DNA of 64,000 nucleotides from Squalus acanthias (Eukaryota): NCBI GenBank assembly GCA_030390025.1, contig JASTWF010000034.1, positions 3,968,001 through 4,032,000 of the forward strand, given 5' to 3'. The translations under genes were made by a program, and so were the position numbers. Positions within the stretch are counted from its first letter, which is position 1, and every line of letters begins with the position of its first letter. Under the pieces are notes generated by a model that saw nothing but the letters and a program-made list of their open reading frames with translations, was not told the origin of the DNA and ran no database searches. Below are positions 169-52,143 of this stretch, piece by piece.

Positions 169-276
169 CATTTCTGTTCCTGACTCTGCTCCAGCTCGGG
201 TTCCCCAGCCACAGTTCCTCTGCCGTTTGTTCCAGGTATTCCAGGGTACACTTTGCTGGACAGGTCACAGCGGGGT
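169..276 (-). pseudogene. PEX5: PEX5 pseudo-exon (the exon following ...EFIAQVT)
   Basis: DPAVTCPAKCTLEYLEQTAEELWLG + (1-nt frameshift) EPELEQSQEQKW versus PEX5 [29 protein letters not shown]...W. Acceptor reads cg, donor reads ga, and the Trp of WxxEY is mutated to Cys. Confidence 0.88.
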
Positions 277-356
277 CGAAGGTTAGAGGATAATTCAGAA
301 GTCAAACACCATTTAAAGTGAAATAGTCAGAGGGGCCGTAATCACCCTCAGGACCT

Positions 357-2622
357 TAACCACAATGCTCGGTGTCAGTGTCCCTGTACCCACAATACCC
401 AGGGTCAGTGACCCTGTACCCACAATGCCCAGTGTCAGTGACCATGTACCCACAATGCCTGGGGTCAGTGGCCCTGTACCCACAATGCACAGTGTCAATG
501 TCCCTGTACCCACAATGCCCAGGGTCAGTGACCCTGTACCCACAATGCCCAGGGTCAGTGACACTGTGTCCACAATGCCCAGTGTCAGTGTCCCTGTACC
601 CACAATGCCCAGGGTCAGTGACTCTGTACCCACAATGCCCAGTGTCAGTGACTCTGTACCCACAATGCCCAGGGTCAGTGACCCTGTACCCACAATGTCC
701 AGGGTCAGTGACTCCAGTACCCACAATGCCCAGTGTCAGTGACTCCATACCCACAATGCCCAGTGTCAGTGACACTGTACCCACAATGCCCAGTGTCAGT
801 GACTCTGTATCCATAATGCCCAGGGTCAGTGACTCTGTACCCACAATGCCCAGGGTCAGTGAACCTGTGTCCATAATGCCCGGGGTCAGTGACCCTTTAC
901 CCACAATGCCCGGGGTCAGTGGCCCTGTACCCACAATGCCCAGTGTCAATGTCCCTGTACCCACAATGCCCAGTGTCAATGTCCCTGTACCCACAATGCC
1001 CAGCGTCAGTGACCCTGTACCCACAATGCCCAGGGTTAGTGACACTGTGTCCACAATGCCCGGGGTCAGTGGCCCTGTACCCACAATGCCCAGGGTCAGT
1101 GACTCTGTACCCACAATGCCCAGGGTCAGTGACCCTGTACCCACAATGCCCAGTGTCAGTGACAATGTACCCACAATGCCCAGTGTCAGTGACTCTGTAC
1201 CAACAATGCCCAGTGTCAGTGACACTGTACCCACAATGCCCAGTGTCAGTGACTCTGTATCCACAATGCCCGGGGTCAGTGGCCCTGTACCCATAATGCG
1301 CAGTGTCAATGATCCTGTGCCCACAATGCCAAGGCTCAGTGGCCCTGTGACCACAATACCCAGGGCGAGTGACTCTGTACCCACAATGCCCAGTGTCAAT
1401 GACCCTGTACAAACAATGCCCAGCGTCAGTGGCCCTGTACCCACAATGCCCAGTGTCAGTGACGCTGTACCCACAATGCCCAGCGTCAGTGGCCCTGTAC
1501 CCACAATGCCCAGGGTCAGTGGCCCTGTACCCACAATGCCCAGGGTCAGCGGCCCTGTACCCAGAATGCCCAGGGCGAGTGACTCTGTACCCACAATGCC
1601 CAGTGTCAATGATCCTGTACCCACAATGCCCAGTGTCAGTGACACTGTGTCCACAATGCCCGGGGTCAGTGGCCCTGTACCCACAATGCCCAGTGTCAGT
1701 GTCCCTGTACCCACAATGACCAGGGTCAGCGACTCTGTACCCACAATGCCCAGGGTCAGTGACTCTGTACCCACAATGTCCAGGGTCAGTGACGCTGTAG
1801 CCACAATGCCCAGGGTCAGTGACCCTTTACCCACAATGCCCAGTGTCAATGATCCTGTACCCACAATGCCCAGTGTCAGTGACACTGTGTCCACAATGCC
1901 CGGGGTCAGTGGCCCTGTACCCACAATGCCCAGTGTCAGTGGCCCTGTACCCACAATGCCCAGGGTCAGTGACTCTGTACCCACAATGCCCAGTGTCAGT
2001 GACCCTGTACCCACAATGCCCAGTGTCAGTGACTCTGTACCCACAATGTCCAGGGTCAGTGACTCTGTACCCACAATGCCCAGGGTCAGTGACCCTGTAC
2101 CCACAATGCCCAGTGTCAGTGACAATGTACCCACAATGCCCACTGTCAGTGACTCTGTACCCACAATGCCCAGTGTCAGTGACACTGTACCCACAATGCC
2201 CAGTGTCAATGGTCCTGTACCCACAATGCCCAGTGTCAGTGACTCTGTACCCACAATGCCCAGGGTCAGTGAACCTGTGTCCATAATGCCCAGGGTCAGT
2301 GGCCCTGTACCCACATTGCCCAGGGTCAGTGGCCCTGTACCCAGAATGCCCAGGGTCAGTGGCCCTGTACCCACAATGCCCAGGGTCAGTGGCCCTGTAC
2401 CCACAATGCCCAGGGTCAGTGGCCCTGTACCCAGAATGTCCAGGGCGAGTGACTCTGTACCCACAATGCCCAGTGTCAATGATCCTGTACCCACAATGCC
2501 CAGTGTCAGTGACTCTCTACCCACAATGCCCAGGGTCAGTGACGCTGTACCCACAATGCTCAGTGTCAATGATGCTGTGCCCACAATGCCCGGGCTCATT
2601 GACGCTGTACCCACAATGCTGA
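357..2622. repeat. 30-bp minisatellite (~75 units) in a PEX5 pseudogene intron
   Basis: Unit GTACCCACAATGCCCAG(G/T)GTCAGTGAC(C/T)CT; lies between the two PEX5 pseudo-exons. Confidence 0.98.
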
Positions 2623-2639
2623 ATGGCCCTTCCACATAC

Positions 2640-2677
2640 CGGTCACCTGGGCAATGAACTCCATTGACAAATCAGCC
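2640..2677 (-). pseudogene. PEX5: 3' remnant of a PEX5 exon (ADLSMEFIAQVT + gtatgt donor)
   Basis: Homologous to 28219-28256; the upstream part has been removed by deletion. Confidence 0.85.
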
Positions 2678-3255
2678 CTGTGGGAGTACCATCACCACAC
2701 GGACTGCAGCGGTTCAAGAAGGCGGCTCACCACCACCTTCTCAAGGGCAACTCGGAATGGGCAATAAATGCTGGCCTTGCCAGCGGTGCCCAGATCCCTT
2801 AAACGAATAAAACAAAATATATATCAGTAACGGATGAAAACGTTGGGTCTCTGTTCTCTTGAAGGCTGAGGGCTGAACTGATAAAGCTCTTTAAAATGAG
2901 GAAAGGTTTTGATGGAGTGGATACAGAGAGAATGTCTCCACTTGTGGGGAACAGCAAAATTAGAGGCCATCAATATAAGGTAGTCACCAAGAAATCAAAT
3001 AGGAAATTCAGAAGAAACCTCTTTACCCAGAGAGTGGTGAGAATGTGGAACTCGCTACCACAGGGAGTGGTTGAAGCGAATAGTATAGATGCATTTAAGG
3101 GGCAGTTAGATAAGCATATGTGGGAGAAGGGAATAGAGGGTTACGCTGATTGAATTAGATGAGGTAAGACGGGAGGAGGCTCGAGTGGAGCATAAACGCT
3201 GGCATGGACTGGTTGGGTCGAATGGCCTGGTTCTGTGCTGTGTACCCCATGTAAT
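2678..3255 (+). mobile_element. 3' end of a CR1-group LINE followed by a CR1 3' fragment (paralogs at 29650-30290 and 52144-52720)
   Basis: ggcaataaatgctggccttgccagc...gaataaaa terminus, then RNLFTQRVVRMWNSLP. Confidence 0.85.
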
Positions 3256-3261
3256 CCCCTG

Positions 3262-4000
3262 TTACAGAGTGAAGCTCTCATCAAATACCTCCAGGGCAGG
3301 TACAGTGGGTTAGATACAAAGTTCAGCTCCCTCTACGCTGCCCCACCAAACACTCCCAGGGAAGGTACAGCACGGGATAGAAACAAAGTAAAGCTCCCTC
3401 TACACTGTCCCATTAAACATTCCAAGGTCAGGGACAGCACGGGTTAGATACAGAGTAAAGCTCCCTCTACACTGTCCACCAAACAGTCCCAGGGCAGGTA
3501 CAGCACGGGTTAGATACAGAGTAAAGCTCCCTCTACACTGCCCACCAAACACTCCCAGGGCAGGTACAGCACGGGTCAGATAGAGAGTAAAGCTCCCTCT
3601 ACACTGCCCACCAAACACTCCCAGGGCAGGTACAGCACGGGTCAGATACAGAGTAAAGCTCCCTCTACACTGTCCCATCAAACATTCCCAGGGCAGGGAC
3701 AGCACGGGTTAGATACAGAGTCAAGCTCCCTCTACAGTGCCCCACCAAACACTCCCACGGCAGGGACAGCACGGGCAAGATACAGAGTAAAGTTCCCTCC
3801 AATTTGGTTCATCAACACAACCAACTCTGATACATCATGTGTTCAATGCAGCGTACAGCTCCCTTGACACTACCCAATGAAGCACAACCAGCTCGGGTAC
3901 AGCATGGGGTCAATACAGAATAAAGATCCCTCTACATGCAAGTGTCAAACACTCCCGGGTGAGGTACGGGCAAGGTTTATCTCCGAGTTAAGCTCCGCTC
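3262..4000 (+). repeat. 67-bp satellite array (paralogs at 30295-30835 and 52728-53465)
   Basis: Same unit, degenerating toward the gene cassette. Confidence 0.93.
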
Positions 4001-4117
4001 AACTTGCTACATCAAAGGCCGAGCCTGATGGCAGATGTTGAACAGCTCCCAGTATCTGGTTAGACTCTCACCTCAGCAAATTCCTGGACTGATGGGATTC
4101 TCAGTAAAGTTCCTCAC

Positions 4118-4600
4118 CTTTCCAATCATTGTTGAAGCTTCCCGTTTTATCCCGTCTCCGACACGGGGGTCTCGATCCCACCAGATCTGCTCTGTGAACC
4201 CAGCGACATTTTTCTAGTCCCAGTGAGTGTGGCGATGATTCAACTTCTCTCTCTCCACCTTCCTGAGATATTGCTCACTCCCAGAGACTGTCAATAGAAA
4301 AATGATTCATATTAATTCGAGAATCAGTAACTGGAATACAGTGGGCCTGTTTTTGTGACTGGGACTGTATCTAATTTCATTTTATTTGCAATTAATGTGT
4401 ATTTGAATTACTTACATTTATATTAAATTGTTCCTTTCAGCCCTTTGCCCTGTTTATTGGGACTAAACTCACCCCCAGTGTCAGCTGTCACTCCAGCTCC
4501 TCCCACACTGACATCCCACTGATGGGCCGTAACCAGGGGCGGGGCCCTGTTTCCAAGTGACATCACACAGGAGCTGGGAGCCAATCAATCAATGAGCAGC
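4118..4600 (-). pseudogene. Unidentified gene 5' cassette, copy a (promoter/exon 1 with donor after 4473; exon 2 4287-4118)
   Basis: GC box 4536-4545, TGACATCA 4558-4565, CCAAT 4581-4585; GG|GTGAGT donor; AT-rich intron; ttttctattgacag acceptor; AAG|GTGAGG donor. Exon 2 is 170 nt, 1 nt short of the 171-nt copies. Confidence 0.65.
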
Positions 4601-4651
4601 CTGGAAAAATGTTAAAGCGGCCAAGCCCCTCCCAATCCCCCCGGGGCAGGT

Positions 4652-7600
4652 ACATAACGAACATACGAATTAGGAGCAGGAGTCGGCAATTCGGCCCCTC
4701 AAGCCTGTTCCGCCATTCAATAAGATCATGGCTGATCTGATTACTCCACATTCCCGTCCAACCCCCGATAACCTTTCACCCCCTTGCTCATCAAGAATCT
4801 ATCTACGTCCGCCTTAAAAATATTCAAAGACTCTGCTTCCACCGCCCTCTGAGGAAGAGAGTTCCAAAGACTCACGACCCTCTGAGAAAAATCATTCTCC
4901 TCACCTCTGTCTAAAATGGGCGCTCCATTATTTTTAAACAGTGACCCCTCGTTCTAGATTCTCCCACAAGAGGAAACATCCTCTCCGCATCCACCCTGTC
5001 AAGACCCCTCAGGATCTTATAGGTTTCAATCAAGTCACCTCTTACTCTTCTAAACTCCAATTTCAACCTTTCCTCATAAGACAACCCGCCCATTCCAGCT
5101 ATTAGTCTAGTAAAACTTCTCTGAACTGCTTCCAACGCATTTACATCCTTCCTTAAATAAGGAGACTAATACTGTACTCAGTACTCCAGATGTGGTCTCA
5201 CCAATGCCCTCTATAACTGAAGCATAAACTCCCTACTTTTGTATTCAATTCCCCTCGCAATAAACGTTAACATTCTATTAGCTTTCCTAATTACTCGCAG
5301 TACCTGCATACTAACCTTTTGCGATTCATGCACTAGAACACCCAGAACCCTCTGCATCTCAAAGCTCTGCAATCTCTCACCATTTAGATAATATGCTTAT
5401 TTTTTATTTTTCCTGCCAAAATGCACAATTGCACATTTTCACACATTTTTCTCTATTTGCCAGATCTGTGCCCACTCACTTAACCTATTTATATACCTTT
5501 GTAGCCTCCATATGTCCTCCTCACAACTTACTTTCCTACCTATCTTTTTGTCATCAGCAAATTTTGCAACCATACCTTCGGTCCCTTCATCCAAGTCATT
5601 TATATAAATTGTAAAAAGTTGAGGCCCCAGCATTATCCCTGTGGCCCACTACACATTACATCTTGCCAACCAGAAAATGACCCATTTATGCTTACACTCT
5701 GTTTCCTGTTAGCTAGCCAATCTTCTATCCATGCCAATATGTTACCCCGACACCATGAGCTTTTATTTTCCGAAATAGGCTTTGATGTGGCACCTTATCA
5801 AATGCCTTCTGGAAATCTAAGTGCAGTACATCCACCGCTTCCCCTTTATCCACAGCACATGTTACTTCCTCAAAGAACTCCAATAAATTGGTTTCTCAAA
5901 GCCATGCTGACTCTGCCTGAATACCTTGAACTTTTACAAGTGCCCTGCTATAACGTCTTTAATAATAGTTTCTAGCATCTTCCCCAAGACAGGTGTTAAG
6001 CTAACTGGCCTGTAGTTTCCTGCTTTCTGTCTCCCTCCCTTTTTGAATAAAGGAGTTACAAACGCTATTTTCTAATCTAATGGAACCTTCCCCGAATCTA
6101 GGGAATTTTGGAAAATTAAAACCAACGCATCAACTATCTCACTAGCTACTTCTTTTAAGACCCTAGGATGAAGTCCATCAGGACCCGGGGACTTGTCAGC
6201 CTGCATCTCCAACAATTTCCTCAGTACTACTTCCCTGGTGATTGTAATTTTCTTGACTTCCTCCCACCCTTCCATTTCCTGATTTACAGCTGTTTCTGGG
6301 ATGTTACTTGTATCCTCTACAGTGAAGACCGATGTAAAATACCTGTTCAATTCAACTGCCATCTCCTTATTTTCCATTATTAATTCCCCAGACTCACTTT
6401 TTATAGGACCAACGCTCCCTTTGTGAACTCTTTTCTTTTTAGAATATCTATAGAAACTCTTACTATCTGTTTTTATATGTCTAGCTAGCTTTTTCTCATA
6501 CTCTAATTTTTTTCTCCTTATTAATCTTTTAGTAATTCTTTGCTGTTTGTTTATATTCTGTCAAATCTTCTGACCTGCCACCCATCTTTGCACAATTATA
6601 TGATTTTTCTTTAAGTTTGATACTATCTTTAACTTTTTTAGTTAACCACGGATGGTGGGTCCCCCCCTTGGAATTTTTCTTTCTCGTTGGAATGGATCTA
6701 TTCTGTGTATTCTGAAATATCCCATTAAATGTCTGCCACTGCAGCTCTATTGACCTATCGCTTACTCTAGTTTGCCAGTTCACTTCAGCTAGCTCTGATA
6801 TCATGCCCTCATAATTGCCCTTATTTATGTTAAAAAAACTAGTCTTGGACCAAATCTTCTCTCCCTCAAACTGAATGTAAAATTCAATCATATTCTGATC
6901 GCTGCGACCTAGGGGCACCTTCACTATGTGTTCATTAATTAATCTTATCTTGTTTCACAATACCAGGTCTACTATAGCCTGCTCTCTGGTTGGCTCCAGA
7001 ACGTGCTGTTCTAAGAAACTGTCCCAAAAACATTCTACGAACTCCTCATCTAGGCTACCTTTGCCCATCTGATTTTTCCATCTATATGTAGATTAAAATC
7101 CCCCATGATTATTGCCGTACCTTTCTGACAAGCTCCCATTATTTCTTCCTTTATACTCCATCCTAACGTGTGGTTACTGTTAGGGGGCCTGTACACCACT
7201 TCCACAAGTGACTTCTTGCCTTCATCATTTCTCATCTCTACCCAAACCGCTTCTACATCCTGGTTTCCTGAACTTAAGTCATCCCTCTATTGCGCTAATA
7301 CCATTATTAATTTACAGAGCCACCCCTCCACTTTTTCCTAAATATCATATACCCTTCAATATTCAGGTCCCAATGTTTGTCATCCTGCAGCCATGTCTCT
7401 GTAATGGCTATCAGATTGTACTTATTTAATTATATTTGCGCCATCAGTTCATCTGTTTTGTTTCGAATGCTACGTGCATTCAGATACAGAGCCTTTAGTT
7501 TTGTCCTTTTATTATTTTTGTAACCTTTAGCCTTATCTGTTGATTTACTCTTAGATTTGTACTCTCTATCCCTTCCCGTCACGGTCTGTTTATCATTTCC

Positions 7601-7872
7601 CATATTAATACCTTTCTCTCTTGTCTTGTTTCTACTCTTTGATTTACCACATCTTCCTAGATCTGATCCCTGGCTCCCAATATTTAGTTGAAAGCCCTCT
7701 CTACCGCCCTAGTTATATGACTCGCCAGAACACTGGTCCCAGCACGGCTCAGGTGAAGACCAACCCAACGGTACAGATCCCACTTTCCCGAGTACTGGTG
7801 CAGGTGCCCAGGAAGCGAAACCAATTTCTCCCATACCAGTCTTTGAGTTACGCATTCATCTCTCTAATTTGA
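4652..7872 (-). mobile_element. CR1 LINE (end of ORF1 plus fragmented ORF2)
   Basis: YRPPNS and MGDFN (APE); KSPGPDGLHPRVLKE, LGPQLF and KFADD (RT); 8-mer tail at 4652-4670. Confidence 0.95.
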
Positions 7873-7877
7873 TGGAC

Positions 7878-10635
7878 CAGGGTAGAGGGAGCTTTACTCT
7901 GTATCTAAACCGTGCTGTATCTGCCCTGGGAGTGTTTGATGGGTATTTGTAGAGGGAGCTTTACTCTGTATCTAACCCGTGCTGCAACAGCCCTGGGAAT
8001 GTTTGATGGGTATTTGTAGAGGGAGCTTTACTCTGTATCTAACCCGTGCTGTACCTGCCCTGGGAATATTTGAAGGGTCTTTGTAGAGGGAGCTTTACTT
8101 TGTATCTAACCCGGGCTGTATTTTCCTGGGAATATTTGAAGGGACAGTGTAGAGGAAGCTTTACATTGCATCAATCCCTGTGCTGCACCTGCCCTGGGAG
8201 TGTTCGATAGGTCTTTGTAGAGGGAGCTTTACTCTGTACCTAACGCTTGCACTACCTGCCCTGCGAGGCTTTAATGCGACAGTGTAGAGGGAGCTTTACT
8301 CTGTATCCAACCTGTGCTGTGCCTGCCCTTGCAGTGTTTGATGGGACAGTGTAGAGGGAGCTTTACTGTGTATCTAACCCGTGCTGTACCTGCCTTGGGA
8401 GTGTTTGATGGGACAGTGTAGAGGGAGCTTTACTCTGTATCCAACCCGTGCTGTACCTGCCCTTGCAGTGTTTGATGGGACAGTGTAGAGGGAGCTTTAC
8501 TGTGTATCTAACCCGTGCTGTACCTGCCTTGGGAGTGTTTGATGGGACAGTGTAGAGTGAGCTTTACTCAGTACCTAACCCTGTGCTGTACCTGCCATGG
8601 GGCTGTTTGATGGGACAGTGTAGAGGGAGCTTTACTCTGTATCTAACCCGTGCTGTACCTGCCCTGGCAGTTTTTGAAAGGACTGTGTAAAGGGAGCTTT
8701 ATTCGGTATCTAACGCAGGCTGTACCTGCCTGAGAAAGTTTGAGGGGACAGTGTAGAGCGAGCTTTACTCTGTATCTAACCCCGTGCACTACCTGCCCTG
8801 CGAGTGTTTGATGCAACAGTGTGGAGTGAGCTTCATTCCATATCTAATCCATGATGCACCTGCCCCGGGACTGTTTGATGGGACAGTGTTGAGGGAGCTC
8901 TACTCTATATCTAACCATTGTTGTATCTGCCCTTGGTGTGATTGATGGCACAATGTATAGTGAGCTATACTCTGTATCTAACCCGTGCAGTACCTGGCCT
9001 GGGAGTGTTTGATGTGATAGTATACAGGGAGCTTTACTCAGTATCTAACCCATGCACTAACTGCCCTGCGAGTGTTTGATGGGACAGTGCAGTGGGAGCT
9101 TTAATCTATATCTAACCATTGCTGTACCTGCCCTGGGTGTGTTTGATGGGATTCTGTAGAGGGATCTTTACTCTGTATCTTACCTGTGCTGTACCTGACC
9201 TGGGAGTGTTTGATGGGTTAGTATAGAGGGAGCTTTATTCGGTATTTAACCCGGGCTGTACTTGCCTGGGACAGTTAGATGGGACAGAGTGGAGGAAGCT
9301 TTACTCTGTATCTTACCCTGTGCTGTAGCTGCCCTGGGAGTGTGTGATGGGTCCGTTTAGAATGAGATTTACTCTGCAGCTAAACTGTGATATACCTGCC
9401 CTGGCCGGTATTGAAACGACAGTGTAGAGGGAGCTTTACTCGTTATCTAACGCATGCTGTATCTGCCCTGGAAGTGTTTGATGGGACAGTGTAGAGGGAT
9501 CTTTAATTTGTATCTAAACCGTACTGTTCCTGCCCTGGGAGTGTTTGATGGGACAGTGTAGAGGGATCTTTAATCTGTATCTAAACCGTGCTTTACCTGC
9601 CCTGGGAGTGTTTGATGGGACAGTGTAGAGGGAGCTTTCCTCTGTATCTAACCCGTGCTGTACCTGCCCTGGGAGTGTTTGATGGGACAGTGTAGAGGGA
9701 GCTTTACTCTGTATCTAACCCGTGCTGTACCTGCCCTGGGAGTGTTTGATGGGACAGTGTAGAGGGAGCTTTACTCTGTATCTAACCCGTGCTGTACCTG
9801 CCCTGGGAGTGTTTGATGGGACAGTGCAGAGGGAGCTTTACTCTGTATCTAACCCGTGCTGTACCTGCCCTGGGAATGTTTGATGGGACAGTGCAGAGGG
9901 AGCTTTACTCTGTATCTAACACCGTGCTGTACCTGCCCTGGGAGTGTTTGATGGGACAGTGTAGAGGGAGCTTTACTCTGTATCTAACCCGTGCTGTACC
10001 TGCCCTGGGAGTGTTTGATGGGACAGTGTAGAGGGAGCTTTACTCTGTATCTAACCCGTGCTGTACCTGCCCTGGGAGTGTTTGATGGGACAGTGCAGAG
10101 GGAGCTTTACTCTGTATCTAACCCGTGCTGTACCTGCCCTGGGAATGTTTGATGGGACAGTGCAGAGGGAGCTTTACTCTGTATCTAACACCGTGCTGTA
10201 CCTGCCCTGGGAGTGTTTGATGGGACAGTGCAGAGGGAACTTTACTCTGTATCTAACCCGTGCTGTAGCTCCCTGGGAGTGTTTGTTGGGACAGTGTAGA
10301 GAGAGCTTTACTCTGTATGTAAACCGTGCTGTACATTACCTGGGATTGTTTGATGGCATAATGTGGAGGGAGCTTTACTCTGTATCTAACCCGTGCTGTA
10401 CCTGCCCTGGGAGTGTGTTGGGACAGTGTAGAGGGAGCTTTACTCTGTATCTAAACCTTGCTGTACCTCCCCTGGGAGTGCAAAAACGGGCAGGATATTT
10501 GCGCTTTACTCTATATCTAACCCATGCTGTACCTAACCTGCGAGTGTTTGATGGGACAGTGCAGACGGATCTTTACTAAGTATATAACAAATGCTGCACC
10601 TGCACTGGGACTGTTTGATGGGAAAGTGTCGTGGG
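7878..10635 (-). repeat. 67-bp satellite array, reverse orientation
   Basis: Reverse complement of GGGCAGGTACAGCACGGGTTAGATACAGAGTAAAGCTCCCTCTACACTGTCCCATCAAACACTCCCA; period 67. Confidence 0.97.
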
Positions 10636-10639
10636 TGCC

Positions 10640-10940: not shown

Positions 10941-10959
10941 CAGGATACAGCGTAGGGAT

Positions 10960-12006: not shown

Positions 12007-12099
12007 CAGTGTAGGATCCGTTGACTTGTTAGCCCTCCCCAAATGCATCACCTCACACTTCTCCGGATTGAATTCCATTTGAGACAATCTTCCTGCATG

Positions 12100-16541: not shown

Positions 16542-16605
16542 AATTAAATAAATCTGTTGGACTATAACCTGGTGTTGTGCGACTTCTCATTTTTTTCTCT
16601 CCCCG

Positions 16606-39930: not shown

Positions 39931-39975
39931 CTGCGGGAAGAGGGAGGAGGACAGTAGGAGTGGGTTTGTGTGTGT

Positions 39976-42900
39976 GCTCGGCCGATGTAGCAGAGCCTGG
40001 TCTCCAATCGTCTTGGATCCCCTTGCCATTGGACCAAGACCTTGCTCTGTCAAGCCTGTGTGGTAGCTGGTGTGCAACGGCCACCCCACGTTAAAAGAAT
40101 TCACGCACAGTATCTTCGACCCTTTAAAATGAAGTTCGGGACCTGGAACATCAGGACCCTCATGGACAAGCCCAACAGCGACAGACTGGAACGCCATTGT
40201 GCTATCGTTGCCCGGGAGCTCAGACGTTTCGACATAGACATCACCACCCTAAGCTAGACCCAGTGGCCAGAGGAAGGCCAGCTCAAGCAGCAAGGCTATG
40301 GTTACACCTTCTTCTGGAAAGGCAAACCTGAAGAAGAACGCTGCCTCCATGGGGTAGGTGTCGCCATAAAAAATGAGCAAGTTAAACGTCTCAGAGACTC
40401 CCCTTGTGGAATAAACGAACGCCTCATCACTCATGGCTCAACCTAGCCCGGAACCAGTGCGCTACGGTCATCAGTGCATCCGCCCCAACACTGGAAGACA
40501 CAGACAAGACCAAAGAGGAATTCTACTCCAGCCTCGAACAATCCCTGTCCCGAGTCCCAATGGGTGACAAGTTGATCGCCCTTGGCGACTTCAACACCAG
40601 AGGTGGAAAGGACACAGTACTCTTGGGAGGTGTGATCGGCAGAGAGGGGGTAGGGAAAGCCAACTCCAATGGTACCCTCCTCCTGACGAAATGCTAAGAA
40701 CATAAGAACATAAGAAATAGGAGCAGGAGTAGACCAATCGGCCCCTCGAGCCTGCTCCGCCATTCAATAAGATCATGGCTGATCTGATCCTAACCTCAAA
40801 TCTAAAGAACACAAGAAGTAGGAGCAAGACCCGGCCACTCAGCCCCTGGGCCCGCTCCGCCACCCACAGGGCCCTGACCGATCCGAACTCAGCCTCATGT
40901 TCAATTTCCTGCCCGCTCACCGTAACCCGTATTTCCCTTTACCTCTAGGAAACTATCTATTTCTGTTTTAAATTGATTTAATGATGTAGCTTCCACAGCT
41001 TCCTGGGGCAGCAAATTCCACAGACCTACTACCCTCTGAGTGAAGAAGTTTCTCCTTTTCTCAGTTTTGAAAGAGCAGCCCCTTATTCTAAGATTATGCC
41101 CCCTAGTTCTAGTTTCACCCATCATTGGGAACATCCTTACCGCATCCACCCGATCAAGCCCCTTCACAATCTTATATGTTTCAATAAGATCGCCTCTCAT
41201 TCTTCTGAACTCCAATGAGTAGAGTCCCAATCTACTCAACCTCTCCTCATATGTCCACCCCCTCATCCCCGGGATTAACCGAGTGAACCTTCTTTGTACT
41301 GCCTCGAGAGCAAGTATGTCTTTTCTTAAGTATGGACACCAAAACTGTATGCAGTATTCCAGGTGCGGTCTCACCAATACCTTATATAACTGCAGCAATA
41401 CCTCCCTGTTTTTATAATCTATCCCACTAGCAATAAAAGCCAACATTCCGTTGGCCTTCTTGATCACCTGCAGCACCTGCATACTAACTTATTGATTTTC
41501 TTGCACTAGGACCCCCAGATCCCTTTGTACTGCAGTACTTTCCAGTTTCTCGCCATTAAGATAATAACTTGCTCTCTGATTTTTCCTACCAAAGTGCATA
41601 ACCTCACATTTTCCAATATTGTATTGCATCTGCCAAATCTCCGCCCACTCACCCAGCCTGTCTATATCCCCTTGTAGGTTTTTTATGTCCTCCTCACTTT
41701 CTACTTTCCCTCCCTGACCTTGTCATAACCAATACCTTGTTCCGTCAGAGAGACAAGTACAAGGCTTCATGGAAACACCCTTGCTCCAAGCACTGGTATC
41801 TGTTGGACTAGGTCATCGCCCGAGCGAGGGACCGCAAGGACGTCCGCATCACCTGTGCCATGACAGGAGCTGACGACTGCTGGACAGCCCACTGCCTAAT
41901 CAGCTCTGTCATCTCCATCAACGTAGCCCCAAAACAGCGGCGGCAACAGATGCAATGCCGCAGGAAAATCAACGCTGGAGCACTCAAAGACCCTGCTAAG
42001 AAAGACCTATTCAGCCTGCGCCTCACAACCAACCTGACGACTCCCAGTGATTCAGAGACACAGAGTGTCCACGGCGCCTGGTCTGCACTCAAGGCCTCCA
42101 TAATCAGCACCTGCGAAGAGACGCTCGGTCACTCGACCAGGAAAAATCAAGACTGGTTCAACAAGACGACCAGGAGATCCAGGAGCGAATAAGTCGCAAG
42201 GGCAAGGCATTGCTGATCTGGAAACAGTAACAGAACTCGAGAGCCAGAAAGCAGCTCTACAGACATTGAAGGCCGAGGTCCAACAAAAAACTCGCGACCT
42301 AAGAACAGATGGTGGATGGAGAAAGCGCAGGAGATCCAGCAGCTGGCTGACAACCACGACGTGCGTGGATTCTTTAGCGCATTCAAGACCACCGACTGCC
42401 CAAGCACCCATGGTCCTACCCCACTGCGGGCTAAGAATGGAGAGGTACTCATCAAGGACAGAGAGGCAGACAGTGCCCGCTGGAAGGAGCACTTCGAAGA
42501 TCTCCTTAACCGAAACTCTGTCTTCGATGCGAGTGTCCTCAACTCCATCCCGCAGCATGCTACCCGCAACCACCTCCGCATAACATCAGTCCGGCATGAG
42601 GTTGAAAAGGCCATCCGACAACTGAAGAACAACAAGGCCTCAGGAGCAGATGGAATCCCCGCCGAGGCGCTTAAACATGGTGAAGAAGTACTATTGGTGC
42701 GAATACATGAACTCATTTCTCTTATTTGGAAGGAGGAGTGCATGCCAGGGGATCTCAGAGATGCCGTAATTGTGAACATCTTCAAGAAAGGTGACAAGTC
42801 CGATTGTGGTAATTACAGAGCAGTCTCCCTGCTGTCTGCCACAGGGAAAGTCATCGCAAGAATCCTCCTCAATCGCCTTCTCCCAGTGGCTGAAGAGCTC

Positions 42901-44322
42901 CTCCCAGAGTCGCAATGCGGATTACGCCCACTAATGGGCACAATGAACATGATCTTCACCGCGCGTCAACTACAAGAGAAATGGAGGGCACAGCACCAAC
43001 CGCTGTACATGGTCTTCTTTGACCTCATAAAGGCCTTCGACACCATCAACCGTGAGGGATTATGGAGTATCCTCCTCAAATTCAGTTGCCCTCAAAAGTT
43101 TGTCACCATCCTCCGCCTGCTTCACGACAACATTCAAGCTGTAATCCTGACAAACAGATCCACCAGAGACCCAATTCATGTACGGACCGGGGTCAAGCAA
43201 GGCTGTGTCATCGCAACAACGCTCTTCTCGTTCTTCCTGGCTGCAATGTTCCATCGCACCCTCAGTGAGCTCTGCGTCGGAGTGGAGCTAATCTACAGAA
43301 CAAATGGGAAACTGTTCAAACTCCATCGCCTCCAGTCCAGATTCAAGGTCGTTCCATCCTCTGTCATCGAATTACAGTATGCAGACGACGCTTGCATCTG
43401 TGCTCACTCACCAGTCGAACTCTAAACCATCTTCAACATCTTCACCGAAGCGTACGAGAGCATGGGCCTTACACTAAACATCCGTAAGACAAAGGTCCTC
43501 CACCAACCAACCACAAGTACTGCTCCCCCATTATCAAAATCCATGACGAGGCCTTGGACAACGTGGACCACTTTCCATATCTCGGGAGCCTACCGTTAAC
43601 AAGAGGAGACGTCGATGACAAAGTCCAACACCGCCTTCAGTTTGCCAGTGCAGCCTTCGGTCGCCTGAGGAAGAGAATGTTTAAAGACCAGGCCCTCAAA
43701 TCCAGCCCCAAGCTCATGGTCTAGAGCAGTAGTGATACCCAACCTCCTGTATGCTTCAAAGACATTGACCATGTACAGCAGGTACCTCAAAGCACTGGAG
43801 AGGTACCACCAATGCTGCCTCCGCAAGATCCTGCGTTTTTGCTCAGGCCAACATCGAAGCTTTGACCACGCTCGATCAGCTCCGATGGACGGGCCACATC
43901 GTCCGCATGCCCGATAAGAGACTTCCAAAATTAGCGCTCTACTCGGAGCTCCGGCACGGCAAGAGAGCCCCAGGAGGGCAGAGGAAACGCTTCAAGGACA
44001 CTCAAAGCCTTCTTGAAAAAGTGCAACATCCCCAGCGACACCTGGGAATCCCCGGACCAAGACCGCACAAAGTGGAGGAAAAGCATCCGGGAAGGCGCCG
44101 AATACGTGGAGTCTCTTCGCCGGGAGCAAGTGGAAGACAAGCGCAAACAGCGTAAGGAGCACGTCAAACCAAGCACCCCACACACCCGCCCCTTCAACCA
44201 CCGTCTGCCCCACCTGTGACAGAGACTGTAGGTCCCGCATTGGACTCATCAGTCACCTGAGAACTCATTTTTAGTGTGGAAGCAAGTCATCCTCATTTCC
44301 GAGGGACTGCCTAAGAAGAAGA
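39976..44322 (+). mobile_element. RTE-clade LINE, near full length, interrupted by CR1
   Basis: Paralog of 23958-26960; RT ORF 42316-43425; C-terminal C2H2-like segment near 44206-44270; (AAG)n tail at 44313-44322. Confidence 0.95.
40704..41714 (-). mobile_element. CR1 LINE 3' fragment inserted into the RTE
   Basis: ORF 40901-41482 (LVRPHLEYC, RRMRGDLIE, RNFFTQRVV); (TTCTTATG)n tail; absent from the paralogous RTE. Confidence 0.95.
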
Positions 44323-44736
44323 CTCTGTGACTCCATCTGTGGAGTCCCTAAGTTTAGACCCACTCCTTGACTCCATCTGTGGAGTCCCGAAATATAGACC
44401 CACTCTGTGACTCCATCTGTGGAGTCCCTAAGTATAGACCCACTCTGTGACTCCCTCTGTGGAGTCCCGAAATATAGACCCAGTCTGTGACTCCATCTGT
44501 GGAGTCCCTAAGTATAGATCCACTCTGACACCCTCTGTGGAGTCCCTAAGTATAGACCCACTCTGTGACTCCATCTGTGGAGTCCTTAAGTATAGACCCA
44601 CTCTGTGACTCCCTCTGTGGAGTCCCTAAGTATGGACCCACTCTGTGACTCCCCCTGTGGAGTCCCTAAGAATCGACCCACTCTGACACCCTCTGTGGAG
44701 TCCCTAAGTATAGACCCACTCTGTGACACCCTCTGT
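44323..44736. repeat. ~40-bp minisatellite (~10 units)
   Basis: CTCTGTGACTCC(A/C)TCTGTGGAGTCCCTAAGTATAGACCCA. Confidence 0.95.
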
Positions 44737-45229
44737 GTGAGTTTGCGATTCATTCTGTTTCTGTCAGTCTCTGGTGCGGTGTGTGAGTGTGCGATTCATT
44801 CTGTATCTGACAATCTCTGATACTATGGGATCACTTGCCTTGTCAGCCCTTCCGAAACGCATAACCTCACAATTCTCCAGATTGAATTCCATTTGCCCCT
44901 TTTCTGCACAACTGACCAGTCCAGTGATTTCTTCCTGCATATATCATGCGTTATAAAGAGACTAAAGCTTCCATTAGACTGCCCAATCAGACAGTCAAAG
45001 GGCAGGTAAAGCACGGGTAAGATAGAGAGATGCAAAGTAAAGCTCCCTCTACAATGGAAACCCAAAACACTCTCTGGGCAGGCAAGGAATGGGTGACGAA
45101 CAGAGTAAAGCTCCCACTAATTTGGTTCAGCCGAGCCTGATGCGAGATGTTGACCAGCTCCCAGTATCTGGTTAGACTCTCACATTGGAAAAATCCTGGA
45201 CTGATGGGATTCTCAGTAAAGTTCCTCAC

Positions 45230-45660
45230 CTTTCCAATCATTGTTGAAGCTTCCTGTTTTATCCCTTTTCCGAAAATGGGGATCTCGGTCCCGCCGGATC
45301 TGCTCTGTGAACCCAGCGACATTTCTCCAGTCCCAGTCAGTGAGGCGATGATTCGACTGCTCTCTCTCCAACTTCCTGAGATATTGCTCACTCCTAGAGA
45401 CTGTTAACAGTAAAATGATTCATATTAATCCCATAATCTGTAACTGGAATGCAGTGGGACTGTTTTTGTGACTGATTATATTTAATTTGACGAAACTCAC
45501 TGCCAGTGTCAGCTGTCACTCCAGCTCCTCCCACACCGACATCCCACTGATGGGCTGTAAGCAGGGGCGGAAACCTGAGTCCAGGTGACATCACAAAGGA
45601 ACCGGGAGCCAATCACACAGCAGCGGGGAATAATGACACAAAGCGGCCATCGCCCCTCCA
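45230..45660 (-). pseudogene. Unidentified gene 5' cassette, copy d (exon 2 45400-45230, 171 nt); most divergent copy
   Basis: ttttactgttaacag acceptor, AAG|GTGAGG donor, exon 1 donor GCA|GTGAGT after 45501, CCAAT and TGACATCA upstream. Reads MSLGSQSRSGGTEIPIFGKGIKQEASTMIGK. Confidence 0.65.
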
Positions 45661-46960
45661 AAGTCAACATGGATTTACAAAAGGTAAATCGTGCTTGACT
45701 AATCTACTGGAATTTTTTGAGGATGTAACTGGTAAAATAGATAAGGGAGAACCAGTGGATGTGGTGTATTTGGACTTTCAAAAGGCTTTCGATAAGGTCC
45801 CGCATAAGAGATTAGCGTGTAAAGTTAAGGCACATGGGATTGGAGGGCAAGGTATTGACTTGGATAGAGAACTGGTTGGCAGACAGAAAGCAGAGAATAA
45901 GAATTAATGGGTCTTTTTCCGAGTGGCAGGCAGTGACTAGTGGGGTACCGCAGGGATCGGTCCTTGGACCCCAACTATTCAGAATATATATTAAATGATC
46001 CAGACAAGGGAACTAGATGTAATATCTCCAAGTTTGGAGATGACACAAAGCTAGGTGGGCGTGTGTGCTGTGAGGAGGATGCCAAGAAACTCCAGGATGA
46101 ATTGGACAGGTTGGGTGATTGGGCAGAAAGATGGCAGATGCAATATAACGTGGATAAATGCGAGGTTATCCACTTTGGTGTCAAAAACAGGAAGGCAGAT
46201 TATTATCTGAATGGCAACAGATTGGGAGAAGGGGAAGTGCAACGAGAACTGGGTGTCCTTGTGCACCAGTCACTGAAGGTAAGCTTGCAGGTGCAGCAGG
46301 CGGTTAAGATGGCAAATGGATGTTGGCCTTCGGAGCGAGAGGGTTTGAGTGCAGGAACAAGGATGTCTTGCTGCGGTTGCACAGGGCCTTGGTGAGACCA
46401 CATCTTGAGTATTGTGTGCAGTTTTAGTCGCCTGATCTGAGGATGGAGGTTCTTGCCATGGAAGGAGTTCAGCGAAGATTCACCAGGCTGGTACCTGGGA
46501 TGGCAGGAATGACGTATGAGGAGAGATTGGATCGATTGGGCTGATACTCGCTGGAGTTTAGAAGAATGAGAGGGGATCTCATTGAAACTTATAAAATTCT
46601 AACAGGACTGGAGAGACTAGATGCAGGAAGGATGTTCCCGATGGTCGGGGAGTCCAGAACCAGGGGTCACAGTCTAAGGATAAGGGGTAAGACATTTAGG
46701 ACAGAAATGAGGAGGAATTTCTTCAACCAGAGAGTGGTGAACTTGTGGAATTCTCTACCACAGAAGGCAGTAGAGGCCAATTCATTAAATATATTCAAGA
46801 AGGACTTGGATATATTTCTTAAACCTAAAGGGATCAAGGGATATGGGGAGAAGGCCGGGACAGGGTACTGAATTTGGATGATCAGCCATGAACGCATTGA
46901 ATGGCGAAGCAGGCTCGAGGGGCCGAATGGCCTGCTCCTGACCCTATCTTCTATGTTTCT
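45660..46960 (+). mobile_element. CR1 RT and 3' end
   Basis: YLDFQKAFDKVPH, FGDDTKL, MRGDLIETYK; tail ttctatgtttct. Confidence 0.93.
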
Positions 46961-46962
46961 CG

Positions 46963-47266
46963 CACTCCCAGTGCAGGTATGATACAGAGCTCCCTCTATA
47001 TTACCCTGACAGTGTCCCCCCACTTTATACCCAGTGTCAGCATCGTGCACTCCCAGGGCAGGTATGATACAGAGCTCCCTCTATATTACCCTGACAGTGT
47101 CCCCCCACTTTATACCCAGTGTCAGCATCGTGCACTCCCAGGGCAGGTACAATACAGAGCTCCCTCTACATTACCCTGACAGTGTACCCCCACTTTATAC
47201 CCAGTGTCAGCATCCAGCACTCCCAGGGCAGGTATAATACAGAGCTCCCTCTACATTACCCTGACA
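46963..47266. repeat. 85-bp tandem repeat (~3.5 units); also at 1-138
   Basis: CACTCCCAGGGCAGGTAYRATACAGAGCTCCCTCTAYATTACCCTGACAGTGTCCCCCCACTTTATACCCAGTGTCAGCATC recurs with period 85; its first half resembles the 67-bp satellite. Confidence 0.9.
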
Positions 47267-47296
47267 TTACCACTGTTACTCCCTCCCGCTCCATTC

Positions 47297-47404
47297 CATT
47301 TCTGTTCCTGACTCTGCTCCAGCTCGGGTTCCCCAGCCACAGTTCCTCTGCCGTTTGTTCCAGGTATTCCAGGGTACACTTTGCTGGACAGGTCACAGCG
47401 GGGT
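47297..47404 (-). pseudogene. PEX5: PEX5 pseudo-exon, duplicate of 169-276
   Basis: Essentially identical to 169-276 (offset 47128), with the same frameshift and splice lesions. Confidence 0.88.
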
Positions 47405-47486
47405 CGAAGGTTAGAGGATAATTCAGAAGTCAAACACCATTTAAAGTGAAATAGTCAGAGGGGCCGTAATCACCCTCAGGACCTTA

Positions 47487-50400
47487 ACCACAATGCTCGG
47501 TGTCAGTGACCCTGTACCCACAATGCCCAGTGTCAGTGTCCCTGTACCCACAATACCCAGGGTCAGTGACCCTGTACCCACAATGCCCAGTGTCAGTGAC
47601 CCTGTACCCACAATACCCAGGGTCAGTGACTCTGTACCCACAATACCCAGGGTCAGTGACCCTGTACCCACAATGCCCAGTGTCAGTGACCCTGTACCCA
47701 CAATACCCAGGGTCAGTGACTCTGTACCCACAATGCCCAGGGTCAGTGACCCTGTGTCCACAATGCCCAGGGTCAGTGACCTCTGTACCCACAATGCCCA
47801 GGGTCAGTGACTCCTGTACCCACAATGCCCAGGGTCAGTGACCCTGTACCCACAATGCCCAGTGTCAGTGACACTGTACCCACAATGCCCAGTGTCAGTG
47901 ACTCTGTACCCACAATGCCCAGTGTCAGTGACTCTGTACCCACAATGCCCAGTGTCAGTGACACTGTATCCATAATGCCCAGGGTCAGTGACTCTGTACC
48001 CACAATGCCCAGGGTCAGTGACCCTGTGTCCCTAATGCCCGGGGTCAGTGACCCTGTACCCACAATGCCCGGGGTCAGTGGCCCTGTACCCACAAATCCC
48101 AGTGTCAGTGACTCTGTACCCACAATGCCCAGTGTCAGTGACACTGTATCCATAATGCCCAGGGTCAGTGACTCTGTACCCACAATGCCCAGGGTCAGTG
48201 ACCCTGTGTCCCTAATGCCCGGGGTCAGTGACCCTGTACCCACAATGCCCGGGGTCAGTGGCCCTGTACCCACAATGCCCAGTGTCAGTGACTCTGTACC
48301 CACAATGCCCAGGGTCAGTGACCCTGTACCCACAATGCCCAGTGTCAGTGACTCTGTACCCACAATGCCCAGTGTCAGTGTCCCTGTACCCACAATGCCC
48401 AGTGTCAGTGACTCTGTACCCACAATGCCCAGTGTCAGTGACACTGTACCCACAATGCCCAGGGTCAGTGACTCTGTACCCACAATGCCCAGGGTCAGTG
48501 GCCCTGTAACCACAATGCCCAGTGTCAGTGTCCCTGTACCCACAATGCCCAGGGTCAGTGACCCTGTACCCACAATGCCCAGTGTCAGTGTCCCTGTACC
48601 CACAATGCCCAGGGTCAGTGACCCTGTACCCACAATGCCCAGGGTCAGTGACCCTGTACCCACAATGCCCAGTGTCAGTGACTCTGTACCCACAATGCCC
48701 AGGGTCAGTGACCCTGTACCCACAATGCCCAGTGTCAGTGACAATGTACCCACAATGCCCAGTGTCAGTGACTCTGTACCCACAATGCCCAGTGTCAGTG
48801 ACACTGTACCCACAATGCCCAGGGTCAGTGACACTGTGTCCACAATGCCCGGGGTCAGTGTCCCTGTACCCACAATGCCCAGGGTCAGTGACTCTGTACC
48901 CACAATGCCCAGGGTCAGTAACCCTGTACCCACAATGCCCAGTGTCAGTGACTATGTACCCACAATGCCCAGGGTCAGTGACCCTGTACCCACAATGCCC
49001 AGTGTCAGTGACTCTGTACCCACAATGCCCAGTGTCAGTGACACTGTACCCACAATGCCCAGTGTCAGTGACTCTGTATCCACAATGCCCAGGGTCAGTG
49101 ACTCTGTACCAACAATGCCCGGGGTCAGTGGCCCTGTACCCACAATGCCCAGTGTCAGTGACTCTGTATCCACAATGCCCAGGGTCAGTGACTCTGTACC
49201 CACAATGCCCGGGGTCAGTGGCCCTGTACCCATAATGCCTAGTGTCAATGATCCTGTGCCCACAATGCCCGGGCTCAGTGGCCCTGTGACCACAATACCC
49301 AGGGCGAGTGACTCTGTACCCACAATGCCCAGTGTCAATGACCCTGTACAAACAATGCCCAGCGTCAGTGGCCCTGTACCTACAATGCCCAGGGTCAGTG
49401 GCCCTGTACCCACAATACCCAGGGTCAGTGACCCTGTACCCACAATGCCCAGTGTCAGTGACCCTGTACCCACAATGCCCAGGGTCAGTGACTCTGTACC
49501 CACAATACCCAGGTTCAGTGACCCTGTACCCACAATGCCCAGTGTCAGTGACCCTGTACCCACAATACCCAGGGTCAGTGACTCTGTACCCACAATGCCC
49601 AGGGTCAGTGACCCTGTGTCAATAATGCCCGGGGTCAGTGACCCTGTACCCACAATGCCCAGGGTCAGTGACCCTGTACCCACAATGCCCAGTGTCAGTG
49701 ATTCTGTACCCACAATGTCCAGGGTCAGTGACTCCGTACCCACAATGCCCAGGGTCAGTGACCCTGTACCCACAATGCCCAGTGTCAGTGACACTGTACC
49801 CACAATGCCCAGTGTCAGTGACTCTGTACCCACAATGCCCAGTGTCAGTGACTCTGTACCCACAATGCCCAGTGTCAGTGACACTGTATCCATAATGCCC
49901 AGGGTCAGTGACTCTGTACCCACAATGCCCAGGGTCAGTGACCCTGTGTCCCTAATGCCCGGGGTCAGTGACCCTGTACCCACAATGCCCGGGGTCAGTG
50001 GCCCTGTACCCACAATGCCCAGTGTCAGTGACTCTGTACCCACAATGCCCAGGGTCATGACCCTGTACCCACAATGCCCAGTGTCAGTGACTCTGTACCC
50101 ACAATGCCCAGTGTCAGTGTCCCTGTACCCACAATGCCCAATGTCAGTGACTCTGTACCCACAATGCCCAGTGTCAGTGACACTGTACCCACAATGCCCA
50201 GGGTCAGTGACTCTGTACCCACAATGCCCAGGGTCAGTGGCCCTGTAACCACAATGCCCAGTGTCAGTGTCCCTGTACCCACAATGCCCAGGGTCAGTGA
50301 CACTGTACCCACAATGCCCAGTGTCAGTGTCCCTGTACCCACAATGCCCAGGGTCAGTGACCCTGTACCCACAATGCCCAGGGTCAGTGACCCTGTACCC

Positions 50401-52088
50401 ACAATGCCCAGTGTCAGTGACTCTGTACCCACAATGCCCAGGGTCAGTGACCCTGTACCCACAATCCCCAGTGTCAGTGACAATGTACCCACAATGCCCA
50501 GTGTCAGTGACTCTGTACCCACAATGCCCAGTGTCAGTGACACTGTACCCACAATGCCCAGGGTCAGTGACACGGTGTCCACAATGCCCGGGGTCAGTGT
50601 CCCTGTACCCACAATGCCCAGGGTCAGTGACTCTGTACCCACAATGCCCAGGGTCAGTAACCCTGTACCCACAATGCCCAGTGTCAGTGACTATGTACCC
50701 ACAATGCCCAGGGTCAGTGACCCTGTACCCACAATGCCCAGTGTCAGTGACTCTATACCCACAATGCCCAGTGTCAGTGACACTGTACCCACAATGCCTA
50801 GTGTCAGTGACTCTGTATCCACAATGCCCAGGGTCAGTGACTCTGTACCAACAGTGCCCGGGGTCAGTGGCCCTGTACCCACAATGCCCAGTGTCAGTGA
50901 CTCTGTATCCACAATGCCCAGGGTCAGTGACTCTGTACCCACAATGCCCGGGGTCTGTGGCCCTGTACCCATAATGCCCAGTGTCAATGATCCTGTGCCC
51001 ACAATGCCCGGGCTCAGTGGCCCTGTGACCACAATACCCAGGGCGTGTGACTCTGTACCCACAATGCCCAGTGTCAATGACCCTGTACAAACAATGCCCA
51101 GCGTCAGTGGCCCTGTACCTACAATGCCCAGGGTCAGTGGCCCTGTACCCACAATGCCCAGGGTCAGTGGCCCTGTACCCACAATGCCCAGGGTCAGCGG
51201 CCCTGTACCCACAATGCCCAGGGCGAGTGACTCTGTACCCACAATGCCCAGGGTCAGTGACACTGTGTCCACAATGCCCGGGGTCAGTGACTCTGTAGCC
51301 ACAATGCCCAGGGTCAGTGACCCTTTACCCACAATGCCCAGTGTCAATGATCCTGTACCCACAATGCCCAGTGTCAGTGACACTGTGTCCACAATGCCCG
51401 GGGTCAGTGGCCCTGTACCCACAATGCCCAGTGTCAGTGTCCCTGTACCCACAATGCCCAGGGTCAGTGACTCTGTACCCACAATGCCCAGTGTCAGTGA
51501 CCATGTACCCACAATGCCCAGTGTCAGTGACCCTGTACCCACAATGTCCAGGGTCAGTGACTCTGTACCCACAATGCCCAGGGTCAGTGACCCTGTACCC
51601 ACAATGCCCAGTGTCAGTGACAATGTACCCACAATGCCCAGTGTCAGTGACTCTGTACCCACAATGCCCAGTGTCAGTGACTCTGTACCCACAATGCCCA
51701 GTGTCAGTGACTCTGTATCCACAATGCCCAGGGTCAGTGACTCTGTACCCACAATGCCCAGTGTCAATGGTCCTGTACCCACAATGCGCAGTGTCAGTGA
51801 CTCTGTACCCACAATGCCCAGGGTCAGTGAACCTGTGTCCACAATGCCCAGGGTCAGTGGCCCTGTACCCAGAATGCCCAGGGCGAGTGACTCTGTACCC
51901 ACAATGCCCAGTGTCAATGATCCTGTACCCACAATGCCCAGTGTCAGTGACTCTCTACCCACAATGCCCAGGGTCAGTGATTCTACCCACAATGCCCAGG
52001 GTCAGTAACGCTGTACCCACAATGCCCAGTGTCAATGATGCTGTGCCCACAATGCCCGGGCTCATTGACGCTGTACCCACAATGCTGA
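47487..52088. repeat. 30-bp minisatellite (~150 units), third copy
   Basis: Same unit and flanks; contains an internal ~1.74-kb higher-order duplication. Confidence 0.98.
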
Positions 52089-52105
52089 ATGGCCCTTCCA
52101 CATAC

Positions 52106-52143
52106 CGGTCACCTGGGCAATGAACTCCATTGACAAATCAGCC
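52106..52143 (-). pseudogene. PEX5: 3' remnant of a PEX5 exon, duplicate of 2640-2677
   Basis: Same sequence and same deletion junction as 2640-2677. Confidence 0.85.

Follow-up and report, generated by a model that had tools for sequence, protein, structure and literature searches.

The 64,000-nt stretch of the Squalus acanthias genome analysed here (contig JASTWF010000034.1, positions 3,968,001 to 4,032,000 of the forward strand; hereafter the window) contains pieces of PEX5, the gene for the receptor of type 1 peroxisomal targeting signals (PTS1). The window very likely consists of three units of a head-to-tail array, each of which carries as a passenger a dead, unprocessed fragment from the 5' part of this gene. 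By class, the copies are unprocessed partial pseudogenes in a tandem segmental duplication, and they are of the ordinary kind. An original prediction, made from the sequence alone, had described a hidden PEX5 pseudogene that was amplified three times, with complementary deletions.

Four consecutive exons of PEX5 (designated A to D) are present on the minus strand with their introns kept, and together they correspond to residues 50-186 of the PEX5 protein of the shark Heptranchias perlo (XP_067837825.1; P0002). The middle copy holds exons A, B and C, and each outer copy holds a 37-nt remnant of exon C together with exon D (Table 1). Both the positions and this division among the copies had been predicted, and they were confirmed by tblastn, by profiles and by a protein search with exon B. 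The query of that search was 41 residues long (exon B plus six intron-coded residues) and gave 30 matches among 45 candidates, 29 of them named PEX5 or PTS1 receptor, one unnamed, and none named PEX5L. The prediction had been staked beforehand on PEX5 being the best match, and in this it held; for the same reason, an identity with PEX5L (TRIP8b) was rejected. The two top matches are from sharks, Scyliorhinus (E 6.3e-10) and Heptranchias (E 1.5e-9). When the Heptranchias protein was used in tblastn, exons B and C were found with an E-value of 4e-31 and exon D with 9e-10. The alignments of the four exons are gapless and in order, with identities of 8/12 for A (residues 50-61), 32/44 for B (62-105), 35/43 for C (107-149), and 18/24 and 8/11 for D (151-185). 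Exons A, C and D are nearer to the Heptranchias than to the Scyliorhinus protein, and C and D are also nearer to it than to that of Mustelus, while B is about equally distant; this suggests a host that is itself a shark or closely related to sharks.

Less was gained from other databases. A search of representative proteins with exon B gave 13 matches, and of the ten that were looked up, four are named PEX5 or PTS1 receptor, five are unnamed, and one is a repetitive archaeal protein that was taken as a chance match. Exon C alone gave eight candidates in the protein database, none of which scored. Among PDB sequences, exon B had no match and exon C had a single weak one, to a PEX5 peptide (2w84_B, E 0.11), and the ESM Atlas returned nothing usable for exon C.

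To cover the rest of the protein, 33 sliding PEX5 profiles of 40 columns each were built from the 30 protein matches and run on the window, with the reversed window as control. The seven profiles over exons A-D score 5.9-62.5 bits, and the control does not exceed 0.1. The ATG exon, with Cys11, was found in the window neither by tblastn nor by the two profiles that cover it, and no TPR exon was found there either, all 23 profiles over residues 210-668 of the Scyliorhinus torazame protein (GCB80702.1; P0001) scoring -1.6 bits or lower. The absence of both from the window had been predicted, and it stands within the sensitivity of the profiles, which gave -2.2 for the true exon D tail and -3.1 for the 37-nt remnant, so that tiny or badly decayed exon relics could escape them.

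Introns are present in all three copies; in the middle copy, the A-B intron is 454 bp and the B-C intron 100 bp, and a 30-bp minisatellite lies 3' of the exon C donor in every copy. Origin as a processed pseudogene or by transduction with a long interspersed nuclear element (LINE) was rejected because of these introns. Retention of the introns, and the position of the copies side by side in a head-to-tail array that extends over tens of kilobases, point to a duplication at the DNA level, in agreement with the predicted intron-containing partial duplicate within a segmental duplication. The long open reading frames (ORFs) of the minisatellite (up to 822 aa) were rejected as genes; they are repeat artefacts, because they are open on both strands and the frame shifts freely.

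Table 1. Positions of PEX5 exons, array blocks and associated features in the window.
Feature	Position	Strand	Details
Exon A, middle copy	29073-29038	-	36 nt; AG intact; stop at 29049-47; GA at the expected donor GT
Exon B, middle copy	28583-28451	-	133 nt; P0002 62-106; AG/GT intact; W0 kept; in-frame stops at 28478-76, 28469-67 and 28460-58
Exon C, middle copy	28350-28219	-	132 nt; P0002 106-150; AG/GT intact; frame open; W1 and W2 kept
Exon C 3' remnant, copy 1	2676-2640	-	37 nt; GT donor intact; W2 Trp lost; upstream end is the 1,454-bp deletion junction
Exon C 3' remnant, copy 3	52142-52106	-	37 nt; deletion junction as in copy 1
Exon D, copy 1	276-169	-	P0002 150-186; acceptor CG; donor GA; 1 base short (frameshift near 206-203); W3 Trp codon changed to Cys at 250-248
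Exon D, copy 3	47404-47297	-	identical to copy 1, lesions included
85-bp repeat in A-B intron	28671..29001		3.9 units
30-bp minisatellite in C-D intron, copy 1	360..2619		75 units
30-bp minisatellite, middle copy	27025..28198		39 units
30-bp minisatellite, copy 3	47488..52085		153 units
Block A1	139..14905	+	matches 47267-63978 (A3), 89-100% per block
Block B1 (LINE and 67-bp satellite)	16636..26964	+	matches 32896-43947 (B2), 94-98%
Block A2, shortened	26960-32031
Block B2	32896..43947	+
Segment C (LINE end, 40-bp and 85-bp repeats, LINE piece, exon D)	43944..47422		deleted at 26960 in middle copy
3,479-bp deletion junction, middle copy	26960..26964		exon D removed; C-D intron joined to truncated LINE
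CpG-island-like stretch	14801..16900		NRF1-, YY1-, ACTACA- and GC-box-like motifs; upstream relative to the orientation of the PEX5 exons
Truncated second copy of motif cluster	32896..33050	-	3.8 kb upstream of exon A

The exons are heavily damaged. Over the four of them there are four stop codons (one in A, three in B), one frameshift (exon D has 108 nt instead of the expected 109) and three lost splice sites. The original prediction had pointed to PEX14-binding motifs in these exons, and this is true of the middle copy, the only one in which W0, W1 and W2 can be read, with the three stops following W0; the tryptophan of W2 is lost in the outer remnants, and that of W3 is lost in exon D. Beyond W0 the motifs are numbered by order. 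In human PEX5, binding to PEX14 is described as involving one LVAEF motif (W0) and seven of the WxxxF/Y type (PMC8086558), and the cycling of PEX5 in import is described as requiring an N-terminal cysteine, Cys11, that is ubiquitinated (bioRxiv 10.1101/2022.05.31.494222). Set against this, the window copies have no Cys11 exon, no TPR domain, and no set of W0 and WxxxF/Y motifs in an open frame, and judging from these lesions they would make no protein.

Whether the stops are real can be judged from public sequencing contigs. An index of runs for 28200-28670 lists 21 runs, which carry several different coded organism labels; 20 of the runs hold part of the stretch and seven hold at least half of its words. 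Contigs of four runs were compared, X3, X6 and X15 from organism A and X7 from another organism, X6 belonging to a different study from X3; of the runs with small word shares (X13-X20), X15 is the one included. The letters that make the exon-B stops dominate in the DNA contigs of X3, X6 and X7; at 28476, for example, the non-stop letter has a depth of 48.1 out of 999.1 in X3, 0 out of 2645.2 in X6 and 23.2 out of 52.6 in X7. A single X7 contig of 449 nt runs across exons B and C with six differences. As DNA contigs of three runs and two organisms hold them, the exon-B stops are not consensus errors.

The RNA-type run X15 gives a different picture, and covers exons only, bar one short repeat. 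Its main contigs (depth 123-157) splice 28451 to 28350 across the GT-AG intron, at a joint depth of 123, and where exon B of the window has its three stops they encode Ser, Arg and Pro, in an open frame. They extend into the match to exon A, and a join to exon D at 28219 is visible by eye (more than 3 mismatches in 30). A spliced, open-frame PEX5 is therefore expressed, and an intact parent gene probably exists; these stops do not belong to the real gene, as the original prediction had required. Exon C of the window differs from the expressed gene at 12 of 132 positions (about 9%), and among the 18 differences listed over B and C, three are synonymous, in line with the 23% expected without selection (P=0.37).

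It is hardly credible, in light of these contigs, that one real PEX5 gene merely looks triplicated, or seems to have stops, through errors of assembly or consensus, although 39% of the region is tandem repeat, X3 is possibly the window's own sample, and the window's letters at 28327, 28363 and 28424 are found in none or almost none of the contigs. These three letters are private to the window or errors, and none lies at a stop. The units differ from one another by 2-5% and by insertions and deletions of their own, and the stop letters are in the majority in another study and another organism besides X3. The deletion junction of the outer copies is seen as a loose end in contigs of both X6 and X7, and the 449-nt contig of X7 spans B and C.

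Several observations weigh against dead copies beside an intact parent. The stop of exon A and the lesions of exon D lie outside the read-covered stretch and are given by the window's letters alone (for exon D, in two identical copies). X15 was classed as RNA by guess, and it also contains a 67-nt contig (depth 11.2) that is identical to exon B of the window; window-type copies may be transcribed, or DNA may be present in that run. The count of synonymous differences is partial, 25 further rows of the difference table lying outside it. Letters that only the expressed gene has, at 28260, 28280, 28541 and 28545, have zero depth in the DNA runs X3, X6 and X7, so the genomic copy of the parent is unseen there; this is unexplained rather than contradictory, and filtering of the records or low depth are possible causes.

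The architecture of the array was determined by comparison of blocks after masking of tandem repeats (24,772 of 64,000 bases). The blocks follow one another as A1-B1-A2-B2-C-A3, all on the same strand, which is a head-to-tail array with the unit C-A-B. With the deleted parts added back, the unit would have been about 30-33 kb long before the deletions, and the present spacing of the exon regions is 26.7 and 20.5 kb. Outside the part that flanks PEX5, A1, A2 and A3, and likewise B1 and B2, differ by 1.7-5.1%. Segmental duplications are defined as sequences of at least 1 kb with at least 90% identity, and matches beyond both limits were found, for example between 3997-7867 and 53464-57341 (94.4%) and between 24690-26964 and 41720-43947 (95.2%); in all, 30,528 bases of the window lie in matches of at least 88%. 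Because the divergence of the units is smaller than the roughly 9% that separates the fragment from the expressed gene, the array probably expanded after the gene piece had begun to decay.

Apart from PEX5, the remainder of the unit is LINE and satellite debris with few signs of selection. A scan of 190 of the 298 ORFs (at least 58 aa, one copy per segment) found LINE domains in 13 and other families, below the cut-off, in two, and 175 ORFs had no match. As regards capture of the gene piece inside a DNA transposon, no transposase family was found among the 190 ORFs, the ends of the array lying outside the window, and no tRNA or Rfam family matched in the window. A 67-bp satellite, with many arrays on both strands (7868-10629, 18579-20423, 35464-37026, 57342-60093 and others), makes up most of the tandem-repeat content apart from the 30-bp minisatellite, and repeats of 31, 40, 75 and 85 bp also occur in the unit. 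The duplicated LINE at 25188-26393 and 42217-43425, which we take to be RTE-like, has an open reverse-transcriptase frame of 402 aa in both copies, with an RVT_1 match in the first. A C2H2 zinc-finger match below threshold lies at the 3' end of a LINE in block B2 (44017-44271, plus strand).

The copy number may be higher than the three predicted. Three copies are indeed present in the window, but they are units of an array, and contig depths hint at many more, even though depth is not calibrated by a single-copy baseline and cannot be read as copy number. In X3, a 76-nt contig identical to exon B of the window has a depth of 449.6, and the lowest contigs listed have 13.7-36.9. In X7 (172 million letters), the 449-nt window-type contig has a depth of 29.5 and the outer-type junction 8.76, and X9 (9 million letters) contains 32% of the words of the stretch. 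These values hint at tens of copies, with both deletion types common to organisms A and B.

The deletions spare the exons as the original prediction had described. At the junction of the 3,479-bp deletion of the middle copy, 2 bp of exact microhomology lie within a near match of 5 bp, and the 1,454-bp deletion that is common to the outer copies lies at about 20 bp of imperfect homology that exon C shares with the upstream intron. The units also differ in similar ways by deletions at matches of 2-4 bp, and in A2 about 8.6 kb seem to have been lost by collapse between the two copies of a 580-bp repeat. The complementarity itself is a coincidence that needs no special cause, because the two deletions are among several independent ones in the units and the spared exons are each disabled.

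Among the insertions is a 742-bp element in B1 (17358-18099) that has inverted ends, contains several perfect hairpins and is flanked by a target duplication of 3 bp; its empty site is found at 33616-33618, and it is probably a non-autonomous DNA transposon. A sub-threshold beta-defensin match at 17893-18162, inside the insertion, was taken as chance.

Beside the minisatellite, the outer copies are more alike than elsewhere in the unit. They differ there at 8 of 877 sites, where 35 are expected from the 4.0% background (P=5e-8), and mismatches are absent between 139-359 and 47267-47487 (221 bases) and between 2620-2819 and 52086-52285 (200 bases), while the minisatellite enclosed by these identical flanks differs twofold in length. 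In a block farther away, each of the three copies has changes of its own (9, 21 and 15 of 700). Local conversion or a recent unequal exchange likely homogenised the flanks of the outer copies.

The unit also carries a candidate promoter. In the CpG-island-like stretch of Table 1, the observed/expected ratio of CpG is 0.84-0.88 over 14801-15400 and 16551-16900, compared with 0.38 for the window, and these two parts hold the listed motifs, which are like those of housekeeping promoters. It may be a relic promoter carried in the unit and a source of low-level transcripts, but is only a candidate, because ten CpG-rich stretches of this kind are present, the majority of them within LINEs or other repeats. 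The island is split by an element at 15347-16597 with inverted arms of 284 and 104 nt (99-100% complementary), which looks young. An ORF within the element (15677-16270) presumably resembles the GIY-YIG endonuclease of Penelope elements, and had no match in Pfam. A 53-codon ORF of the CpG stretch (14992-15150, plus strand) had no match in the ESM Atlas, and the longer ORF that encloses it had none in Pfam.

Such a promoter could be imagined to let the array act through RNA, with read-through from the CpG island splicing A-B-C of the middle copy to exon D of copy 1, the complementary deletions being kept because together they restore a single transcript, one that regulates PEX5. The order on the minus strand is collinear (A-B-C at 29-28 kb, then D at 0.3 kb), the truncated motif cluster lies upstream of exon A, and the 67-nt contig of X15 is identical to the window. 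This is nonetheless very improbable: exon A lacks a donor and exon D lacks both acceptor and donor, no spliced contig of window type is among the contigs listed, both deletions look like those that removed non-exonic DNA elsewhere in the units, and the two deletion types are unequal in depth in X7 (29.5 versus 8.76).

A second, multi-copy type of PEX5 fragment, designated class 2, occurs in the contigs and lies outside the window. Its exon B has depths of 176 (X3), 745 (X6) and 23.2 (X7), is open at all three stop sites of the window, and differs from the window over 28478-28586 at ten positions, seven of them synonymous, two shared with the expressed gene and one a private replacement. Seven of eight private changes are therefore synonymous (P=2e-4 at an expectation of 23%, 4e-3 at 35%). 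A class-2-like exon C has a changed start and breaks off at 28235 into sequence resembling the 30-bp minisatellite, and so is without a donor; the sequence at the break has 23 matches in the window at 3 mismatches, all of them inside minisatellite arrays, and the minisatellite probably predates the split between the window class and class 2. That this exon C and the class-2 exon B belong together is assumed from depth. In a 119-nt contig of X15 (depth 7.5), class-2 exon B is spliced, with the frame kept, to an exon D with 1 mismatch in 30 to that of the window and with the W3 tryptophan present. A derived Pro (28541) is common to class 2 and the window, yet class 2 is far richer in synonymous change, and a simple clock does not explain this excess. 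Class 2 may be an older duplicate that was functional for a time and then decayed, or a short gene that is still constrained.

If the latter were true, this shark lineage would have a high-copy family of PEX5 fragments, with the window copies as its dead branch and class 2 as its constrained branch, which we regard as unlikely. It is similarly doubtful that exon B of this branch is under purifying selection and that C is skipped, giving a short spliced B-to-D protein predicted to bind PEX14, and only a tentative suggestion that the product, with W0 and W3 and without Cys11 or TPR domain, serves as a natural decoy or modulator of peroxisomal import. The synonymous bias, the open stop sites and the in-frame B-to-D contig speak for selection. 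Yet the bias is also compatible with a duplicate that once worked and is now dead, and it becomes weaker when the expressed gene's own differences are counted (8 of 11-12 synonymous, P=0.01-0.03 at 35%). The contigs from which class 2 was assembled are short and unphased, the 3' end of its putative exon C is missing and the start is changed, and its RNA depth is about 5% of that of the main form (6.5-7.5 versus 123-157). Upstream of its exon B the consensus is poor (agreement 0.54) and absent from the window, and it has no known start codon. A search for short PEX5-fragment proteins of sharks gave 15 matches among 20 candidates (30-223 aa), none of which has the B-to-D build or is named PEX5L, and the only shark among the 15 is Mustelus, with a partial, ordinary sequence. 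Nor does a constrained class 2 say anything about a function of the three window copies. Were it real, a truncated PEX14-binding derivative of PEX5 maintained by selection would represent a new type of peroxisomal import regulator.

For the array with dead PEX5 passengers, the events may have run as follows. A DNA-level duplication would have taken post-ATG exons of PEX5 with their introns, perhaps together with a CpG-island promoter. Once without function, the piece would have diverged by about 9% from the expressed gene and accumulated stops, a frameshift and damaged splice sites, before the unit was multiplied via unequal exchange. Single units would have been eroded by short-homology deletions (of 1,454 bp in the outer copies and 3,479 bp in the middle one) and by insertions of elements, and finally the surroundings of the minisatellite would have been homogenised between the outer copies.

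The window copies open no long-standing question. They are a small, clean case of a piece of a housekeeping gene that is carried along by a tandem array, here in a shark genome rich in repeats. They also carry a warning for annotation, as in this lineage both exon-level PEX5 matches and read depth confound the real gene with its many fragments. No report of PEX5 pseudogenes or paralogs in sharks was found in the titles and abstract starts listed by searches of the open-licence literature. Degraded or truncated PEX5 entries, judged by eye, are present in other vertebrates too (for example P0042 and P0043).

Compared with the PEX5 proteins of sharks (Heptranchias perlo, Scyliorhinus torazame and the partial sequence of Mustelus asterias, P0047), the window copies encode the same residues in the same order, but lack the Cys11 exon and the cargo-binding TPR domain, and bear the stops, the frameshift and the splice-site losses described above. 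Zebrafish is described as having one Pex5 and two Pex5-related proteins, and PEX5L (PEX5R, TRIP8b) as a vertebrate paralog of PEX5 that can bind PTS1 proteins in vitro (PMC8919083). Like PEX5L, the window copies are PEX5-derived sequence that does not serve as an import receptor, but PEX5L is a full, old gene, whereas they consist of N-terminal PEX5 exons only. With processed pseudogenes and LINE transductions they share the multiplication of a housekeeping-gene piece in a repeat-rich genome. Unprocessed partial pseudogenes in tandem segmental duplications are a known general class, and the likeness to these is closest in kind: introns and splice positions are kept, the gene is partial, disabling mutations are present, the parent is probably intact elsewhere, the copies are more than 90% identical over kilobases, and they have been eroded by deletions and locally homogenised. 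What is unlike the usual members of this class is the passenger, a housekeeping receptor, the host, a cartilaginous fish, and depths that hint at tens of copies in more than one organism.

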